The position numbers were made by a program, and so were the translations under genes. A DNA stretch of 64,000 nt, from the NCBI RefSeq assembly GCF_044324875.1, contig NZ_CP172185.1, one strand, 5' to 3'. The notes under the pieces were generated by a model. It did no database searches and was not told where the DNA came from. It was given only the letters and a program-made list of their open reading frames with translations. Position 1 is the stretch's first letter, and every line of letters begins with the position of its first letter. This document shows, piece by piece, positions 34,719-43,234 of this stretch. Source of the DNA: Escherichia coli (GTDB lineage: Bacteria > Pseudomonadota > Gammaproteobacteria > Enterobacterales > Enterobacteriaceae).

Positions 34719-36032
<1,314 letters not shown>

Positions 36033-36050
36033 GTCTGACTTTATCTGATT

Positions 36051-36082
36051 AAAAAATGCCAGCCTTCGGGCTGGCATTTTTT
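36051..36082. terminator. Bidirectional intrinsic terminator between eno (+) and ygcG (-)
   Basis: aaaaaatgccagcc-ttcg-ggctggcatttttt. The hairpin is flanked by an A-run and a T-run. Confidence 0.85.
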
Positions 36083-36091
36083 ATGGTTGAG

Positions 36092-36985
36092 TTACCAGCG
36101 ACCGGACGCGCCGCCACCGCCAGAAGAACCGCCCCCGCCGCTAAATCCGCCGCCACTTGAGCCGCCACCGGAAGAGGATGAAGAAGAACCTTTTCTTGAA
36201 GCTCTTTCTTTACTGAGTTTTTTGTATTTGGCGCGTAGCTTTTTATTAACGATAAGCCAAAAAATAACCAGTGGTACGATAGCAAAAGGCGTGAGCATAC
36301 CGCAGGCAACGATTAAATTCGTCCATGGTCCTGGCTCGGCAACATAGAGGAATACCATCCCATAAATTCCGCCAGTCAGTGCTATCCAGGGTAAATTCGA
36401 CGGATCGGTAAAAACAATAAAATATGAAAGTACCGCCAGCAATATAATTACAGCAAGCGATAATGGAATAGGGGGATTGATACTGTAATAATCCCCCCTG
36501 TCTTCCGGTAATTCACCATTCAACAGAAGCGCTCCGATATTTTCGCTTGCCAGTGTTAACCCACCCATCAAGTCATCACTTTTGAAGGCTGGGATTAATA
36601 TATTACGGATAATCTTCGCTGCTTGCAGATCGGTAACCACCCCTTCCAGCCCGTAGCCCACTTCTATACGGACAGCATGATCTTCCCAGGCAACCAGCAG
36701 TAAAATACCATCGTTTCGCTGCTTATCTCCCAGTTTCCAGCTATCAAAAACGCGTGTTGCATATTGTTCAATGGTATCGTCTCCGGTGGATGGCACTATT
36801 AATACGGCGACCTGGGCCCGTGTTTTTTGTGTGATATCCTGCAGCTGTTGTGTCAGTGATTGTTGTTCAGACGTGCTTAACGTACCAGTAATATCGGTCA
36901 CCTGTTGGCGCAGCTCCGGCACAGCAATTTGCTGGGCAAGCCCAGGAAGGCACCATAAAGTAAGTAGAAAAAAGATTAAGCGCAT
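36092..36985 (-). CDS. ygcG: TPM-domain membrane protein (YgcG family), paralog 3
   Basis: 297 aa. Signal peptide MRLIFFLLTLWCLPGLAQ, then a TPM (TLP18.3/Psb32/MOLO-1-like) domain with TIEQYATRVFDSWK...LLLVAW.DH.VRIE.GYGLEG. About three TM helices follow, then a basic stretch and an S/G-rich tail ending GGGGASGRW. Orthology to K-12 ygcG is inferred only from its position next to eno. Confidence 0.75.
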   Translation of the reverse strand: MRLIFFLLTLWCLPGLAQQIAVPELRQQVTDITGTLSTSEQQSLTQQLQDITQKTRAQVAVLIVPSTGDDTIEQYATRVFDSWKLGDKQRNDGILLLVAWEDHAVRIEVGYGLEGVVTDLQAAKIIRNILIPAFKSDDLMGGLTLASENIGALLLNGELPEDRGDYYSINPPIPLSLAVIILLAVLSYFIVFTDPSNLPWIALTGGIYGMVFLYVAEPGPWTNLIVACGMLTPFAIVPLVIFWLIVNKKLRAKYKKLSKERASRKGSSSSSSGGGSSGGGFSGGGGSSGGGGASGRW

Positions 36986-36990
36986 AATGA

Positions 36991-38139
36991 TTACCAGCGT
37001 CCGGATGAACCGCCGCCTCCTGAAGAACCACCACCACCGCGGAAAGAATTTCTCGACGAAGAGCGAGAATGAGCATTACGATTCCCCGTTTTCCTGTTGC
37101 TTTTTTCTCCTGACCCCAGTTTAAGATTGCCAGTAAATTTGGCCACAATGATCAGCAGAACTATGCCAGCAATGGTTATTGGGCCGATAAAATGATCAAT
37201 TAGCCCAATAATTGTTGAGATGAATGCAATATCTTTATTACTGGCGAACACCAGGCACCATCCCACAATAATTATCAGCATCACGACAAACAATGAATTT
37301 CGTCCTGATTCACGAACCTGCGGAGTCTTCTTTTGTTTTTTCACTTTAGTGTTTTTATTTTTGGGGGCCAGCATCATAGGAAATGCGCGGCACATATTAA
37401 AAACTACCGCGAGACGCTGCCAGCAGGTTGTTGCTAACAATAAACTAAAACAAACGACCGATACCCGCCGAATGATGACATCGTCCTGAAAGGAGAAAAA
37501 CCAGACCATAGGGGTAATCATCGATATCATCCATATGCCACGCCCTGGGCGGCTGGCAAATCGCCAGAGGACAACGATGGCAACGATCATCAGCAGTGTC
37601 CAGGCAAGACAAGGCAGCGAACGTTGCGGATTAGCAAACAGATGATTGGCTAAAGCATCCAAAGGGCTAAGGTTCGCTTTGATATGGGTAAACTGTGCGA
37701 TGCTTTCAATTCCGCCCGTTAATCCAGCAAAGAGATTGTTTTTTTCGAATTCTGGCTGCATATGGTAACGAACAATTTGCGCAGCTTGTTCCGGCGGCAA
37801 CATCTGTTCCAGTCCATGTCCAATCTTCATTGACGCCAGCCCTTCCGGCCATACGACGAGAATTAAGATACCTTCGCCATATCGCTTCTCTCCAACGGGT
37901 TTCCAGTGATATACCCCGTATCTCTGCGAGGCTGCAAGTTTAATGTTTTTGCCCCCTGTGGTCGGCGTGACCAACACGGCCACCTGGAAGTGGTTTTGCT
38001 GCACGAGAGTCTGTAATTGTTGAGTTAAAGCAGTTTGTTCTTCTGTCGTTAATGTCCCGGTTAAGTCAGTTACTGAAGGCAATTGTTCAGCGAATACCTG
38101 AAAACCGCATAGCATCAGAAGTAAGAGAAAAATACGCAT
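36991..38139 (-). CDS. TPM-domain membrane protein, divergent paralog 2
   Basis: 382 aa. Signal peptide MRIFLLLLMLCGFQVFA, a more divergent TPM-like domain (DLTGTLTTEEQTALTQQLQ...ILILVVW), about five TM helices and a tail ending GGGGSSGGGGSSGRW. There is a 5-nt gap to the next gene. Confidence 0.7.
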   Translation of the reverse strand: MRIFLLLLMLCGFQVFAEQLPSVTDLTGTLTTEEQTALTQQLQTLVQQNHFQVAVLVTPTTGGKNIKLAASQRYGVYHWKPVGEKRYGEGILILVVWPEGLASMKIGHGLEQMLPPEQAAQIVRYHMQPEFEKNNLFAGLTGGIESIAQFTHIKANLSPLDALANHLFANPQRSLPCLAWTLLMIVAIVVLWRFASRPGRGIWMISMITPMVWFFSFQDDVIIRRVSVVCFSLLLATTCWQRLAVVFNMCRAFPMMLAPKNKNTKVKKQKKTPQVRESGRNSLFVVMLIIIVGWCLVFASNKDIAFISTIIGLIDHFIGPITIAGIVLLIIVAKFTGNLKLGSGEKSNRKTGNRNAHSRSSSRNSFRGGGGSSGGGGSSGRW

Positions 38140-38153
38140 ATCAATTCCTTTTG

Positions 38154-39047
38154 TTACCAGCGCCCGGAAGCGCCACCGCCACCAGATGAACCGCCACCAC
38201 CGCTGAAATTGTCATTGTTGAATGAAGAGGATGACGATGATGAATAGTGGGAGGAAGAATTGCTTCTTGTATGGCGTGATGGCTGGTTGGCATCACGCAT
38301 CGAATCCCGAACCTTTTTGCCGAAGGGGGTAAAAGCGATGGCGACAGCCAGGAACGGTGTGGCGAAGCAGAGTAATGTTGCGAGTACTCCCCAGCTTCCG
38401 CTGAAGCCTGCTATAGGTAAAACAAAGGCCAGTACAATAGCTGCGAAGCAAATTACTCCCAGCGTTTTGATATATCCTCTGGCAGAAATAAACGTCAGTA
38501 CTATCGCCCAGACTAACAAAGCCCACCAACCGCTAAAAGGCAAAGGGTGATCGGTCGGTGTTATCGTTGCTAAATTATTCCCCGTCAGACGACTTTCAAT
38601 ATCGCTGATTCCCTTTTGCAAACCACCAGCCAGGTCCCCTTTTTTAAATGCCGGAATAATACTGTTGCGAATAATTTTCCCGGACTGTGCATCCGTAATA
38701 ATACCTTCCAGTCCGTAACCGATTTCAATACGCACGGTATGATCCTGCCAGGCGACTAACAGTAGAACGCCATCATCGTGGTCTTTATCACCCGGTTTCC
38801 AGCTATCGAATACCCGCGTTGCGTACTGCTCGATGGTTTCATCGCCTGTTGTTTCAACCACTAACACGACCAACTGTGCGTTGTTTTTTTGCGTCAGGGC
38901 TTTAATCTGGTTGGTCAGGGTGTTTACTTCACTGTTTGTCAATGTGCCGGTTAAGTCATTCACATACCTGGGTGATTCAGGTACTGGAATTTGTGTGGCA
39001 AACACAGATGAACAGAAGAAAGCCATAAGGAAGATAAAATTTCGCAT
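38154..39047 (-). CDS. TPM-domain membrane protein, paralog 1
   Basis: The ORF track starts at 39077. The start is placed at the ATG at 39047 (MRNFIFLMAFFCSSVFA signal peptide), preceded by SD ggggaag. The TPM domain is very similar to paralog 3. TM helices follow, then a Ser-rich tail ending GGGGSSGGGGASGRW. Confidence 0.75.
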   Translation of the reverse strand: MRNFIFLMAFFCSSVFATQIPVPESPRYVNDLTGTLTNSEVNTLTNQIKALTQKNNAQLVVLVVETTGDETIEQYATRVFDSWKPGDKDHDDGVLLLVAWQDHTVRIEIGYGLEGIITDAQSGKIIRNSIIPAFKKGDLAGGLQKGISDIESRLTGNNLATITPTDHPLPFSGWWALLVWAIVLTFISARGYIKTLGVICFAAIVLAFVLPIAGFSGSWGVLATLLCFATPFLAVAIAFTPFGKKVRDSMRDANQPSRHTRSNSSSHYSSSSSSSFNNDNFSGGGGSSGGGGASGRW

Positions 39048-39060
39048 ATAACTTCCCCGC

Positions 39061-39663
39061 TTAATGCGCATTAGCATTCTGGCTAAAATCTATTATTGGT
39101 GCTTTACTCACAGCTGCGACGTCATCCGGCAAATAATTTTTCTTCGGTGTGTAATCCATGACCTTTGCGGTTAATACAGCGGGGAATTTGCGGATAGTGA
39201 CATTATATTGTTCAATGGCTTTAATATATCTTCCTCGCGCAACGGCAATTCTATTTTCACTTCCTTCGAGCTGTACCATTAAATTTTGATAGAGTTCCTG
39301 AGCTTTTAAATCAGGGTAACGTTCACTAATTATCGTTAACTGACCGAGAGTGCGAGACACCTGCGCCTGGGCTTGTTGCCAGGCTTGTAATTTTTGCGCA
39401 TCTCCCGGAGCTTGCTGAAGATCGCTACTGGCGCGATTAGCCTGGCTACGTGCCAATGTTACGGCTTCCAGTACCTCTTGTTCATGGCTGGAATAACCTT
39501 TAATACTGGCGACAAGATTAGGAATAAGATCGGCGCGACGTTGATATTGATTCAATACCTCAGACCAGGAGGCGTTAACCTGCTCATCATAGGTTTGAAT
39601 ATCGTTATATCCACAGCCTGATAAATTGGCAATAAATATAATTACGATGAATATCCTGAGCAT
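39061..39663 (-). CDS. LemA-family protein (probable lipoprotein)
   Basis: 200 aa. The N-terminus MLRIFIVIIFIANLSGC has a lipobox. The rest resembles the LemA family (WSEVLNQYQRRADLIPNLV...ERYPDLKA...L.G.ENRI..AR..Y). It is the first gene of a tight four-gene operon. Confidence 0.75.
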   Translation of the reverse strand: MLRIFIVIIFIANLSGCGYNDIQTYDEQVNASWSEVLNQYQRRADLIPNLVASIKGYSSHEQEVLEAVTLARSQANRASSDLQQAPGDAQKLQAWQQAQAQVSRTLGQLTIISERYPDLKAQELYQNLMVQLEGSENRIAVARGRYIKAIEQYNVTIRKFPAVLTAKVMDYTPKKNYLPDDVAAVSKAPIIDFSQNANAH

Positions 39664-39835
39664 GTCTATGTCCCTTTTAATTAATTCCTTAAAACATAAT
39701 ACGCCGCTTCATTTTATTCTTTATGATCTCATCCACTTTTTGCCTTAAACCTGCCTGTAACAGAATGTTAATAAGACATGATTGTTGTGGCAGGATCTGC
39801 AATAATTAACAATTATCCACTTCACAGAGAATGCT

Positions 39836-40507
39836 ATGCAGTACCCGATTAACGAGATGTTCCAGACCCTGCAAGGTGAGGGTTACTTTACCGGCGTCCC
39901 CGCCATTTTTATTCGTTTACAGGGATGCCCGGTTGGCTGTGCCTGGTGCGACACCAAACACACCTGGGAAAAGCTTGAGGATCGGGAAGTCTCCCTTTTC
40001 AGCATTCTGGCGAAGACCAAAGAGAGTGATAAGTGGGGGGCGGCGAGCAGTGAAGACTTGCTGGCTGTCATTGGTCGCCAGGGATACACCGCGCGGCATG
40101 TGGTGATTACGGGTGGTGAGCCTTGCATTCATGATTTGCTGCCACTGACTGACCTGCTCGAAAAGAACGGTTTTAGCTGCCAGATCGAAACCAGTGGTAC
40201 TCATGAGGTACGCTGCACACCGAATACCTGGGTTACCGTATCGCCAAAGCTGAACATGCGCGGCGGCTATGAAGTGTTGTCACAGGCACTGGAGCGAGCC
40301 AACGAAATCAAGCATCCAGTGGGACGCGTACGTGATATTGAAGCACTGGATGAACTACTGGCAACACTGACCGATGATAAACCGCGAGTCATTGCACTGC
40401 AGCCGATTAGCCAAAAGGATGATGCTACTCGTTTATGTATCGATACGTGCATTGCGCGCAACTGGCGTTTGTCGATGCAAACGCATAAATATTTAAATAT
40501 TGCCTGA
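39836..40507 (+). CDS. queE: 7-carboxy-7-deazaguanine synthase QueE (radical SAM)
   Basis: 223-aa ORF with the radical-SAM Cys motif CPVGCAWC, recognised as YgcF/QueE. Confidence 0.9.
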   Translation: MQYPINEMFQTLQGEGYFTGVPAIFIRLQGCPVGCAWCDTKHTWEKLEDREVSLFSILAKTKESDKWGAASSEDLLAVIGRQGYTARHVVITGGEPCIHDLLPLTDLLEKNGFSCQIETSGTHEVRCTPNTWVTVSPKLNMRGGYEVLSQALERANEIKHPVGRVRDIEALDELLATLTDDKPRVIALQPISQKDDATRLCIDTCIARNWRLSMQTHKYLNIA

Positions 40508-40699: not shown

Positions 40700-40845
40700 A
40701 ATAGAGTTATTTCAAATATTTATCTTTTTAATCAATGGATTAAATGCTCTTTAACATAATGGATGTGTTGTTTGTGTGATACTGTAAAGTTGGTAGATTG
40801 TGACTGGCTTAAAAAATCATTAATTAATAATAGGTTATGTTTAGA
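40700..40845 (+). promoter_or_regulatory. CRISPR leader (type I-E, E. coli type)
   Basis: AT-rich sequence ending ...gttggtagattgtgactggcttaaaaaatcattaattaataataggttatgtttaga directly abuts repeat 1. It is recognised as the conserved E. coli I-E leader. The 5' boundary is approximate. Confidence 0.75.
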
Positions 40846-41118
40846 GAGTTCCCCGCGCCAGCGGGGATAAACCGCTTCATCTGTCGGGCTAACTGGACAA
40901 AGAAACGAGTTCCCCGCGCCAGCGGGGATAAACCGTCGGTTTGACATCAAAGAAGCCATCAATCAGGGAGTTCCCCGCGCCAGCGGGGATAAACCGGTCT
41001 GGCCATAGGAACAAAGAAATTTGTCTTTGAGTTCCCCACGTCAGCGGGGATAAACCGGACACAGAGCGCCGCTATAGCGCCTATGCCAAGAGTTCCCCGC
41101 GCCAGCGGGGATAAACCA
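40846..41118 (+). CRISPR. Orphan type I-E CRISPR array (5 repeats, 4 spacers), CRISPR2.3 position next to queE
   Basis: 29-bp repeats gagttccccgcgccagcggggataaaccg start at 40846, 40907, 40968, 41029 and 41090. Repeat 4 is a variant (ccccacgtcag) and the last repeat ends in a instead of g. The four 32-bp spacers are cttcatctgtcgggctaactggacaaagaaac, tcggtttgacatcaaagaagccatcaatcagg, gtctggccataggaacaaagaaatttgtcttt and gacacagagcgccgctatagcgcctatgccaa. Confidence 0.97.
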
Positions 41119-41620
41119 CCATATAACCCGTTATCTCTTTCTCAAGTTTTTATATTAGCAGTACTTGTAATAAGCAACATATCCACGTAACACCTCATGT
41201 TCAAAATAGTTCTCCATGCCAGAGAAGTTCACAATTATCGATACAAAAAATTAAATTTAATCAAAGTGTTATTTGTATGATTCTTAAATCGTTAAGAAAT
41301 TTTAATATATTATTTTTTTAATATTAATTAATGCCTGTTAATTTTTTCTTTAGAATAACAGTGTATTTTTTAAGCTTATTATTCATTGATTAAGTAATAA
41401 ATCTGGAAATTTGTCTTTGTTTTGAGGCTAATGAGTGATTTTACATAATCGCCTCTATACGCTGTTGATGAATAGTTCTTATGAATAAAGATATCCAGTT
41501 CATACTTTAAGTGAAAATTGATAAAGTGCGATTCGTATTGTCTTTTATTCTAAAGACATCGAGTGTAGTTAATATTCCTTGTAAAAACAGGGATAAACCG
41601 AACTAGTTAAAGTTTTTATT

Positions 41621-41709
41621 ATGTTCCCTGCATCAGCGGGGATAAACCGGACTTGTTATCATTTTTTAAGTTGTCGAACTTATGTTCCCCGCGTCAGCGG
41701 GGATAACCA
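41621..41709 (+). CRISPR. Degenerate two-repeat I-E mini-array (CRISPR2.2 position next to ygcE)
   Basis: Repeats are atgttccctgcatcagcggggataaaccg (41621-41649) and atgttccccgcgtcagcggggataacc (41682-41709, one A deleted). The 32-bp spacer between them is gacttgttatcattttttaagttgtcgaactt. A possible truncated repeat remnant cagggataaaccg lies at 41588-41600. Confidence 0.8.
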
Positions 41710-41755
41710 TTCAGGTATGTTCAGGCCGGGCAGTTTCCCGCCCGGTCTTCCTCAC

Positions 41756-43234
41756 TTACGCATTCGACCAGCTCTGGATCGAATCTTCATTCCCCAGCTC
41801 ACCATGCATCACTTCATACGATTTTTTCAGGATCACATCAGTGTGTTTGGTTAGGTCTTTGAAAATGCCTTTATTCATCGCGTTGTAGCGTTTGGCGTTG
41901 CTCTCAACAGGCATAAAGATATCTTTCACGCGAACCATTTTGTCGACAGCCGTTGCGTAATCCGGGTATAGCCCCAGACCTACCGCCGTATTAATCGCTG
42001 CCCCCAGGCTTGCACAACCATTAATGGCGTTACGGCGTGCCGGAAGGTTGAACACGTCGGCAAAAATCTGCATAAACAGATCGCTGTTCGAACCGCCGCC
42101 AGTAATGATCACATGCTTTGCAAAGTGATTCATTTCATTACACATATTGTCGTAATTGTTCTTCAGCGTCAGCGCCACGCTTTCCAGTATCGAACGATAT
42201 ATCCATGCGTAATCCATGCTGGAATCAAAGCCAATCATAATCCCGCGTTTGTACGGTTCCCACGGATTGGTCAGCCAGTCCAGCACCGTCATCAGACCAT
42301 TACAGCCTGGCGGCACACAAGAAGCTTTTTTGTTGAGTAAATCTTCCGGTGAAAGATCCTGCGCCCTGGCATCCTGAATTAACGACTCGCCTAGCATGTC
42401 GCGCAGCCAGCTCACCGTCCACATGCCTTTGCGAATACCGTAACCTTCATACAGCAAGGTTTGCGGAATAGAAGACATAATCGGCCAGTACGCTACCGGA
42501 TCTTTCGGCAGTACTTTGCCGTTCATCATCAACGCGATGTAAGTGCCAAGAGAAATTACCGCAGTTTCATCATCCAGTAACCCGGCTCCCAGTGCTTCTA
42601 CCGGTTTATCACTGGTGGTACAAACAACCGGCAGCCCAGCCGGGAAATGTGTCGCCAGCGCGGCTTGAGGAGTGATATGCCCAAGAACAGTGCCCGGCAT
42701 TTGCACATCAAACAGCATATGACGGGGGATATTAAACTTCTCCATGACTGCGGCATCTTCACTCCATGCCCAGGTCTTATAATCCACCGGCCACTGACCA
42801 AAATAGTTGGCGATATTGTCTTTAAACTCGCCGGTTAAGCGATGCGTCAGATAACCCGAAAAAGAGGTGACATATGCCACGTCAGGATTCGTATGTTCGT
42901 AAGGGCGTGTAACGCGTGCATCCTGCCAGCTAATCAACGGCGCAGCTGGCGTGCCATCGGCTTTCAATAACGCACGGCAGCAACGGATGGATCCCAGACC
43001 AATACCGACAATATCTTCTTTATTTCCGGCAAACTGACTCATCAAATCGTGACCGGCAAAGCATAATGATGCCCATAAATCGTCGTCAGGATGTTCTGCG
43101 GTATCGGCATCTGGCGTGTGCATCGGCTGCAATAAGCCTTTGCCTTCGCAAACCACATTACCTTCCAGATCGTACATCACCACTTTTGTGCTCTGACTTC
43201 CACCATCAATCCCTATGATGTATTTTTTCGACAT
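41756..43234 (-). CDS. ygcE: FGGY-family carbohydrate kinase YgcE (substrate unknown)
   Basis: 492-aa ORF with an FGGY N-terminal motif (IGIDGGSQSTK). Confidence 0.85.
   Translation of the reverse strand: MSKKYIIGIDGGSQSTKVVMYDLEGNVVCEGKGLLQPMHTPDADTAEHPDDDLWASLCFAGHDLMSQFAGNKEDIVGIGLGSIRCCRALLKADGTPAAPLISWQDARVTRPYEHTNPDVAYVTSFSGYLTHRLTGEFKDNIANYFGQWPVDYKTWAWSEDAAVMEKFNIPRHMLFDVQMPGTVLGHITPQAALATHFPAGLPVVCTTSDKPVEALGAGLLDDETAVISLGTYIALMMNGKVLPKDPVAYWPIMSSIPQTLLYEGYGIRKGMWTVSWLRDMLGESLIQDARAQDLSPEDLLNKKASCVPPGCNGLMTVLDWLTNPWEPYKRGIMIGFDSSMDYAWIYRSILESVALTLKNNYDNMCNEMNHFAKHVIITGGGSNSDLFMQIFADVFNLPARRNAINGCASLGAAINTAVGLGLYPDYATAVDKMVRVKDIFMPVESNAKRYNAMNKGIFKDLTKHTDVILKKSYEVMHGELGNEDSIQSWSNA

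Follow-up and report, generated by a model that had tools for sequence, protein, structure and literature searches.

The interval between eno and queE in a 64,000-nucleotide (nt) stretch of Escherichia coli DNA (RefSeq assembly GCF_044324875.1, contig NZ_CP172185.1; hereafter the window) carries an operon of four genes, consisting of lemA and three genes that encode proteins with a TPM domain, here named TPM1, TPM2 and TPM3. Our comparative analysis showed that this operon is an expanded haplotype of the queE-eno interval of E. coli that differs from the K-12 one, and that the module it contains is conserved across Proteobacteria. This module is known, annotated and functionally uncharacterised; the operon is an enlarged variant of it, and the most striking feature of the operon, the C-terminus shared by the three TPM proteins, is generic to the family. 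New in this analysis are the family-wide definition of that terminus with its predicted strand, the degenerate TPM domain of TPM2, the four haplotypes found in E. coli and the origin of the K-12 gene yqcG. Our literature search found no functional study of the lemA-ygcG module, as had been anticipated in an earlier note on this DNA, which was made from the sequence alone.

Composition and conservation of the lemA-TPM operon

Profile searches assigned the product of the first gene to the LemA family (Pfam PF04011, 164.4 bits, 2e-48; residues 32-193 against profile positions 1-149 of 149; gathering cut-off 26.2 bits) and those of the other three to the TPM family (Pfam PF04536, gathering cut-off 22.1 bits; TPM1 139.5 bits, 8e-41; TPM2 72.2 bits, 5e-20; TPM3 133.2 bits, 7e-39). 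Structural relatives are available for both families, namely PDB 2ETD for LemA ("lemA protein"; phmmer, 6.9e-33) and BA41 of Bizionia argentinensis for the TPM proteins. These family assignments are those proposed in the earlier note, as is the reading of the four same-strand genes as one operon, with gaps of 13, 14 and 5 nt and divergent from queE, which is borne out by the open reading frames (ORFs) and the raw sequence. Narrower families did not include these proteins: LemA falls outside the MamQ equivalog (NCBIfam NF040966, 93.8 bits, cut-off 250), and two of the paralogs score 35.1 and 33.6 bits against the Psb32 equivalog (NCBIfam NF047379), below its cut-off of 160, with no match for TPM2.

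LemA carries the lipobox that the earlier note had read in it, LSGC at residues 14-17 (context LSGC-GYND). The GCGYN lipobox context was present in 80/80 proteobacterial LemA homologues examined, and these are therefore lipoproteins. Under the Lol sorting rule of E. coli, Gly at position +2, with no Asp there, predicts an outer membrane location. LemA-like domains are described as membrane-associated four-helix bundles linked to scaffolding or membrane remodelling. LemA also matches the PHROG family phrog_1383, labelled "virion structural protein" (4e-22). Relatives of LemA are encoded in 40 of 50,697 phage records, and in several of these a TPM gene lies beside lemA, among them huge-phage record LR745206 and that of Enterococcus phage Efs 1-1-1; some of the LemA-bearing records are short fragments or metagenomic bins, in which host contamination is possible.

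To place the operon among related loci, we compared it with 80 proteobacterial loci found through LemA among the matches listed, whose LemA proteins are ~50% identical to that of the window; among the species representatives in those matches there was no close LemA relative. In ~70 of the 80 loci, lemA is directly followed by a gene for a long TPM protein (280-330 amino acids, ending in GGGGASGxW), which agrees with the earlier description of the two families as habitual neighbours. Most of these long TPM proteins have about three hydrophobic segments after the TPM domain. A short TPM protein (~165 amino acids, with neither signal peptide nor transmembrane segment, ending in NELPDxPVxL) is encoded next in ~33 of the 80, and no further neighbour recurs in more than 11 of them. 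Pseudomonas aeruginosa has the order dsbB-lemA-ygcG. Within positions 36092-39663 of the window there is no short stand-alone TPM ORF.

Closer to E. coli, the queE-eno slot of E. albertii holds lemA-TPM1-TPM2, and that of Klebsiella spallanzanii (L087:3537-7468) holds lemA, a TPM1-like gene of 294 amino acids (end GGGGASGHW) and a TPM2-like gene of 268 amino acids (end GGGGASGRW). The presence of these related arrangements in the same slot means that the arrangement is older than E. coli. The K. spallanzanii slot also shows, before eno, an apparent CRISPR array (translated repeats ...FIPAGAGNT...).

The three TPM proteins share one layout, in line with the single architecture attributed to them earlier: an N-terminal signal-like peptide precedes the TPM domain, which is followed by hydrophobic helices, a basic patch and, last, a Ser/Gly tail; all three end in SGGGG(A/S)SGRW. 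This is the layout of the YgcG family (signal peptide, exported TPM domain, three or more transmembrane helices, basic patch and disordered, Gly-rich GGGGASGxW tail). TPM1 has three hydrophobic helices and a Ser-rich tail ending in ...GGGGASGRW, and TPM3 has the same end; TPM2 has about five predicted transmembrane helices around a very basic loop (KNKNTKVKKQKK) and ends in ...GGGGSSGRW. TPM1 and TPM3 are 45% identical, whereas TPM2 aligns with them over the TPM domain only (36-40%), plus the tail. The closeness of the first and third paralogs and the greater size and divergence of the second (382 against 297 amino acids) had been noted before and hold.

This divergence extends to the conserved core. 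In an alignment of 101 diverse YgcG-family members, 41 columns are at least 85% conserved; TPM3 keeps 41/41 of them, TPM1 40/41 and TPM2 30/41. All near-invariant charged residues (D31, E73, R106, E108, E114 and D119) are retained in TPM1 and TPM3, and TPM2 carries the substitutions E73K, R106S, E108K and D119P at such sites. On this alignment, TPM2 is therefore a divergent YgcG-family member with a degenerate TPM domain. Orthologues of TPM2 are confined to Escherichia, and the K. spallanzanii gene in the same position encodes the same membrane block and tail with no TPM domain. Given that counterpart and the degenerate domain, TPM2 looks like an accessory subunit in the membrane for which a TPM domain is not essential.

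We also compared the genes with other E. coli alleles. The ratio of nonsynonymous to synonymous substitution rates (dN/dS) was 0.10-0.17 for lemA, 0.14-0.21 for TPM1 and 0.27-0.32 for TPM2; synonymous divergence (dS) of the operon genes was 0.08-0.32, compared with 0.03-0.05 for eno. By these estimates the operon genes are under purifying selection, and their alleles have a greater age than the flanks or have undergone more recombination. The dN/dS range of 0.10-0.32, together with the unchanged location of these genes on the chromosomes of E. albertii and K. spallanzanii, is evidence that the genes are functional.

The coordinates of the operon and its surroundings are given in Table 1. The ATG of TPM1 at 39047 is preceded by a Shine-Dalgarno-like run, GGGGAAG, in the raw sequence; an alternative, longer TPM1 ORF from 39077 would overlap lemA. 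The hairpin between eno and the operon was recovered by BLAST as a self-match in reverse orientation, and a consensus terminator scan missed it. Beyond queE lie two small type I-E-like CRISPR arrays (40834-41121 and 41609-41713; repeat GAGTTCCCCGCGCCAGCGGGGATAAACCG, 61-nt period), one with 5 repeats and the other with 2 degenerate repeats, between queE and a gene for an FGGY-family sugar kinase (41756-43234). A CRISPR array is annotated in the same place in the K-12 and JS01 records. An Rfam scan of the 33-44 kb region at gathering thresholds returned zero RNA elements, CRISPR arrays included.

Table 1. Features of the eno-queE region, in window coordinates
Feature	Position	Strand	Remarks
lemA	39061-39663	minus	200 amino acids; from ORF listing and raw sequence
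TPM1	38154-39047	minus	297 amino acids; start ATG at 39047, 13 nt past the lemA stop
TPM2	36991-38139	minus	382 amino acids; 14-nt gap after TPM1
TPM3	36092-36985	minus	297 amino acids; 5-nt gap after TPM2; positional counterpart of K-12 ygcG
TPM1 tail-tip coding segment	38154-38210	minus	equivalent of TPM3 36092-36148
TPM2 tail-tip coding segment	36991-37047	minus	equivalent of TPM3 36092-36148
TPM3 tail-tip coding segment	36092-36148	minus	...SGGGGSSGGGGASGRW and stop
queE	39836-40507	plus	divergent from the lemA-TPM operon
Divergent lemA/queE control region	39664-39835		conserved with the K-12 yqcG-queE intergenic region
eno	34734-36032	plus	convergent with the lemA-TPM operon
Bidirectional hairpin terminator	~36050-36081	both	aaaaaatgccagcc-cgaa-ggctggcatttttt, T-runs on either side; common to eno and the operon; read directly from the sequence

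The shared C-terminus and its predicted structure

The SGGGG(A/S)SGRW end common to the three paralogs had been put forward as an invariant GRW signature of this operon. A full-library search with TPM3 returned 22,398 clusters at 50% identity (E <= 1e-3). In the best 149 of these, 128 representatives end in Trp, with the consensus G[SFG][SF]GGGGASGxW in which x is S, R, G, D, K or N; the exceptions are mostly fragment-like. The final Trp (W297) and several Gly residues are invariant in the alignment of 101 diverse full-length members, and K-12 YgcG and BA41 have the same type of terminus. The motif is thus conserved in orthologues, as the earlier note had expected, and by this comparison the GRW end is a local form of a very old, family-wide feature, GGGGASGxW, with a variable penultimate residue, and is not specific to the operon. 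A literature search for the motif strings found no paper in this context, and a protein-database search with the tail alone for unrelated carriers returned E. coli fragments only, probably because of low complexity.

The DNA that encodes the tails recurs at 36092, 36991 and 38154, as previously observed. Most differences between the copies are synonymous and fall on the third position of Gly codons, which argues that the repeat is kept by homology under protein-level constraint. Recent gene conversion was rejected as its source on account of these synonymous differences, and chance was likewise rejected in favor of homology. Several of the E. albertii TPM2 clusters P0269, P0271, P0274, P0277, P0279, P0280 and P0281 end in ...GGGGASGR with no final Trp, and one ends in ...GGGDSFGRR, which suggests that the constraint on the tip is relaxed in this paralog.

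An AlphaFold2 model of TPM3 built from 101 sequences had a mean predicted local distance difference test score (pLDDT) of 84. Its TPM domain (pLDDT >90) forms the alpha-beta-alpha sandwich of the family and has a Foldseek template modelling score (TM-score) of 0.90 to BA41 (5ANP) and to 7TBR. It is followed by helices at residues 174-191, 194-214 and 219-245, a basic helix at 247-260 and a Ser/Gly linker that is disordered (pLDDT <50, residues 263-287). The last six residues are modelled as a beta-strand (block pLDDT 96). Since a short strand at such confidence must be paired, the tip would pair with the sheet of the TPM domain, the only sheet in the model. The corresponding model of TPM2, from 15 sequences, was uninformative (pLDDT 39).

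Sheet completion of this kind has precedents: AscG completes the sheet of AscF in trans, and BA42 is completed by the tail at its own C-terminus (PMC13456599). All three paralogs have a basic patch after the membrane helices (GKKVRDSMRD in TPM1, NKKLRAKYKKLSKERASRK in TPM3 and NLKLGSGEKSNRK... in TPM2), which we oriented by the positive-inside rule. Taken together with the signal peptide and the odd number of helices, these patches predict a periplasmic TPM domain and a cytoplasmic tail tip.

Haplotypes of the interval, the origin of yqcG and regulation

The earlier note had placed a single K-12 gene between queE and eno. This proved inexact, as the K-12 interval holds two genes, ygcG (b2778) and the 46-codon yqcG. 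Three genes of the operon are indeed accessory relative to K-12, which has no lemA, TPM1 or TPM2. Starting in eno, the K-12 and window sequences are homologous as far as window position 36173, a stretch that takes in the last 82 nt of TPM3, which encode its tail; homology returns at window position 39631, 33 nt inside lemA.

This second junction bears on the origin of yqcG (L001:2579-2719, 46 amino acids), which is homologous to window positions 39631-39700. Over its 5' 70 nt, yqcG aligns significantly to the leader and first 12 codons of lemA, with a score of 43 (shuffle maximum 32, 0/300), and the hydrophobic core of YqcG, KIIFIFSVL, corresponds to VIIFIANL in the signal peptide of LemA. On these alignments, YqcG, a small K-12 protein annotated with "cell envelope stress response", is built on a relic of the leader and signal-peptide codons of lemA, so the K-12 state is derived by loss. 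We found no paper stating a lemA origin of YqcG. The 3' half of yqcG was also considered as a remnant of the lemA 3' end and rejected, as the alignment was not significant. It should be mentioned that a two-codon mini-ORF (ATG TTT TAA; 39684-39692, minus strand) lies 21 nt upstream of the lemA ATG and aligns with the start codon of K-12 yqcG.

YgcG of K-12 has a composite history. Residues 81-290 are 90-96% identical to TPM3 of four-gene operons of the LF82/A36 type, whereas residues 1-80 are 55-58% identical to any sampled TPM3 and 47% identical to TPM1. The switch in identity falls at a conserved IEQYATRVFD box, at which, on these comparisons, alleles are clearly shuffled by recombination. 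A simple chimera of the window TPM1 and TPM3 was rejected as the source of K-12 YgcG, given the 47-58% identity of its first 80 residues and the lack of DNA similarity for L001 2389-2653. The suggestion that K-12 arose by deletion through recombination between paralogs is therefore upheld as to loss, and recombination between the paralogs of the window is unsupported.

Our survey of 5426 complete E. coli genomes found the whole interval at >=80% coverage in 1101. Piece by piece, lemA was detected in 1454 genomes, the 3' part of TPM1 in 1452, TPM2 in 1104 and the window-type membrane body of TPM3 in 782; the K-12-type yqcG with the 5' part of ygcG was found in 3950 and the K-12-type YgcG body in 4290. 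These counts define four classes of haplotype. The first is the K-12 type, yqcG-ygcG (~73%). The four-gene form is present in ~20% overall, as a second class with the window-type TPM3 (~14%) and a third with a mosaic TPM3 in which residues 81-290 are K-12-like (~6%; LF82 and A36). The fourth class (~6.5%; JS01) has lemA, a divergent TPM1 and, in place of TPM2 and TPM3, a hydrophobic ORF of 120 amino acids (L002:1689-2051) that could not be annotated and has no Pfam or PHROGs match. The pieces tested are identical in E. coli 042 and several other strains. With 0 or 1 LemA and 1, 2 or 3 YgcG paralogs, these natural haplotypes may offer isogenic-like comparisons.

In LF82, A36 and JS01, RefSeq flags TPM1 as "partial, missing C-terminus" (L085:3056-3727, L086:3071-3742 and L002:2321-2992). 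A TPM1 pseudogene in these strains was rejected, as the frame is intact to ...GGGGASGRW and the stop codon, and the flags are probably an annotation artefact of the low-complexity tail. Insertion sequence (IS) elements were seen in single strains: CH4796 (NZ_CM166348.1) has an IS4 inside the four-gene operon, and EcPF5 (L003:6599-7981) has ISEc45 and an IS66 fragment in place of lemA and TPM1.

The region upstream of lemA is shared with K-12. From window position 39631, the lemA-queE intergenic region is 94% identical to that between yqcG and queE, and nearly 100% identical in its distal part. PhoP-P binds in K-12 to the 300 bp upstream of queE and to the 300 bp after that, and deletion of yqcG raises queE expression (PMC4974570); the yqcG-queE region is likewise a binding target of sigma-S RNA polymerase (PMC4447067). 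A PhoP-box-like repeat (TGTTACaggcaGGTTTA, 39746-39762, minus strand) is conserved, and a consensus promoter scan gave no convincing sigma-70 promoter upstream of lemA. The operon is probably driven by the stress-responsive promoter region of K-12 yqcG. Beyond the enterobacteria, lemA and a TPM gene rise together under membrane stress in a Flavobacterium sppA mutant.

Proposed function and comparison with known systems

Few bacterial envelope proteins that lack an assigned function are as common as LemA and the YgcG-type TPM proteins. As a tentative reading, which we favor over the alternatives while giving it somewhat less than an even chance, the operon would encode a stress-induced, non-enzymatic envelope scaffold. 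LemA, anchored in the outer membrane (no Asp at +2), would meet the periplasmic TPM domains of the YgcG paralogs held in the inner membrane, and together they would act as a scaffold or adaptor that assembles or stabilises envelope and membrane protein complexes. Transcription would come from the region from which K-12 expresses its envelope-stress gene yqcG, with its binding of PhoP and sigma-S RNA polymerase. The tail tip, as a docking peptide on a tether, would contribute a beta-strand to the sheet of a partner, and TPM2 would be a non-canonical accessory subunit. Current opinion on TPM domains leans to adaptor or assembly roles at membranes: for photosystem II this is Psb32/TLP18.3, for respiratory oxidases AscF and CcoZ and for a receptor MOLO-1, and YdjH works with PspA. 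Of the docking, sorting or degradation signal that had been suggested for the GRW end, the AlphaFold2 model gives some support to docking, and the rest of that suggestion, like the multi-subunit module proposed along with it, remains inference.

Several points weigh against such a scaffold. As ~73% of E. coli live with one YgcG and no LemA, any role must be dispensable or conditional. With a periplasmic domain and a cytoplasmic tip, docking in cis is topologically implausible, and the E. coli operon has no cytoplasmic short TPM protein to receive the tip, whose strand partner is itself inferred from the model. The promoter assignment is made by homology only, and in a PhoP-box scan the site at 39746-39762 was not statistically distinctive by count. 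In addition, some TPM domains show phosphatase or ATPase activity in vitro.

This last point leads to an enzymatic module, which we consider unlikely. Here TPM1 and TPM3 would be periplasmic phosphatases or nucleotidases, with LemA as cofactor or regulator and the tails as mere anchors. BA41, the closest solved relative, has the same architecture and a GGGGASGGW end and is reported to have ATPase/ADPase activity, and TLP18.3, BA42 and Rv2345 are reported as phosphatases; moreover, the near-invariant charged residues kept in TPM1 and TPM3 and the loss of several in TPM2 resemble an enzyme with a pseudo-enzyme paralog. However, these residues could equally form a binding surface, AscF binds no metals or nucleotides, no physiological substrate is reported in the papers found, and authors of comparative-genomics work hold the phosphatase assignment unlikely and prefer an assembly role.

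It is improbable, too, that the C-terminus acts as a degradation or quality-control signal and not as a docking strand, with the disordered cytoplasmic tail as an initiation site for FtsH or ClpXP that sets the turnover of the three paralogs. The tail lies past the basic patch, is predicted to be disordered over residues 263-287 and is probably cytoplasmic, and its tip is identical in the three paralogs; the loss of the final Trp in several E. albertii TPM2 orthologues also indicates that the tip is dispensable in at least one paralog. Against this, AlphaFold2 gives the tip as an ordered, high-confidence strand, and the invariance of the Gly runs and the tip across the 101 diverse sequences points to a structural constraint. 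We know of no degron class that the tip matches, which also speaks against a degradation signal.

Least likely of all is a conflict system, that is, a variable anti-phage, anti-colicin or surface-exclusion cassette that would explain the presence/absence polymorphism: the four haplotype classes, the membrane regions only ~18% identical between alleles, a dS above that of eno, the adjoining CRISPR arrays, the PHROG match of LemA and the lemA-TPM pairs in some phage records fit it, but PADLOC-DB gave only a noise-level match (PDC-M18B, E = 0.007, 13.8 bits, no stretch passing), the cassette has no mobility genes and IS elements in single strains only, its chromosomal position is stable across genera, selection is purifying and not diversifying, the module is housekeeping-like across Proteobacteria, and fragments and metagenomic bins are common among the "phage" records.

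If the scaffold is extended to the whole family, the GGGGASGxW end would be a tethered strand by which the sheet of a TPM domain is completed. The obvious candidate to receive the tip in canonical operons is the short TPM protein of the cytoplasm, and the module would physically link a lipoprotein of the outer membrane and a TPM domain in the periplasm to a partner in the cytoplasm; in E. coli it would have been remade into a heteromer composed of three long paralogs. This extension is speculative and, in our view, has only a small chance of being right. If true, LemA/YgcG modules would be a widespread and unrecognised trans-envelope sensing or assembly device. Our findings overturn nothing in current understanding; what they offer to experimenters is the conserved anatomy of the module and a C-terminal family signature with a testable structural prediction.

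Among the closest known systems is the canonical proteobacterial lemA-long TPM-short TPM operon (e.g., of Burkholderiales and Xanthomonadales), with which the operon of the window shares gene order, tight spacing, a lipoprotein LemA and the tail of the long TPM protein; the P. aeruginosa form is lemA-ygcG only. The canonical operon has one long TPM protein and often a cytoplasmic short one, whereas in that of the window all three TPM proteins are long, one is degenerate and the short form is missing. K-12 occupies the same eno-queE slot with the same YgcG architecture and ...SGGGGASGRW terminus, but its YgcG is 42% identical to TPM3 of the window overall and ~18% identical in the membrane region, and of lemA, TPM1 and TPM2 it retains only the lemA 5' relic inside yqcG.

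At the protein level, LemA of Thermotoga maritima (PDB 2ETD) and MamQ belong to the same Pfam family as LemA of the window, which, unlike MamQ, would be a lipoprotein facing the periplasm and not a magnetosome or cytoplasmic-face protein. BA41 and BA42 of B. argentinensis (5ANP and 4OA3) are TPM relatives of solved structure: BA41 is of the long YgcG type, with a TM-score of 0.90 to the TPM3 model and the end ...GGGGASGGW, but these proteins are from Bacteroidota, are 29% identical and were studied as soluble domains only, with weak ATPase or phosphatase activities in vitro. Finally, Psb32/TLP18.3, AscF/AscG, CcoZ and MOLO-1 have the same TPM fold and act as membrane-tethered adaptors or assembly factors; they differ from the window proteins in identity (16-22%), topology, partners and organisms, and in having no Gly-rich, W-terminated tail.

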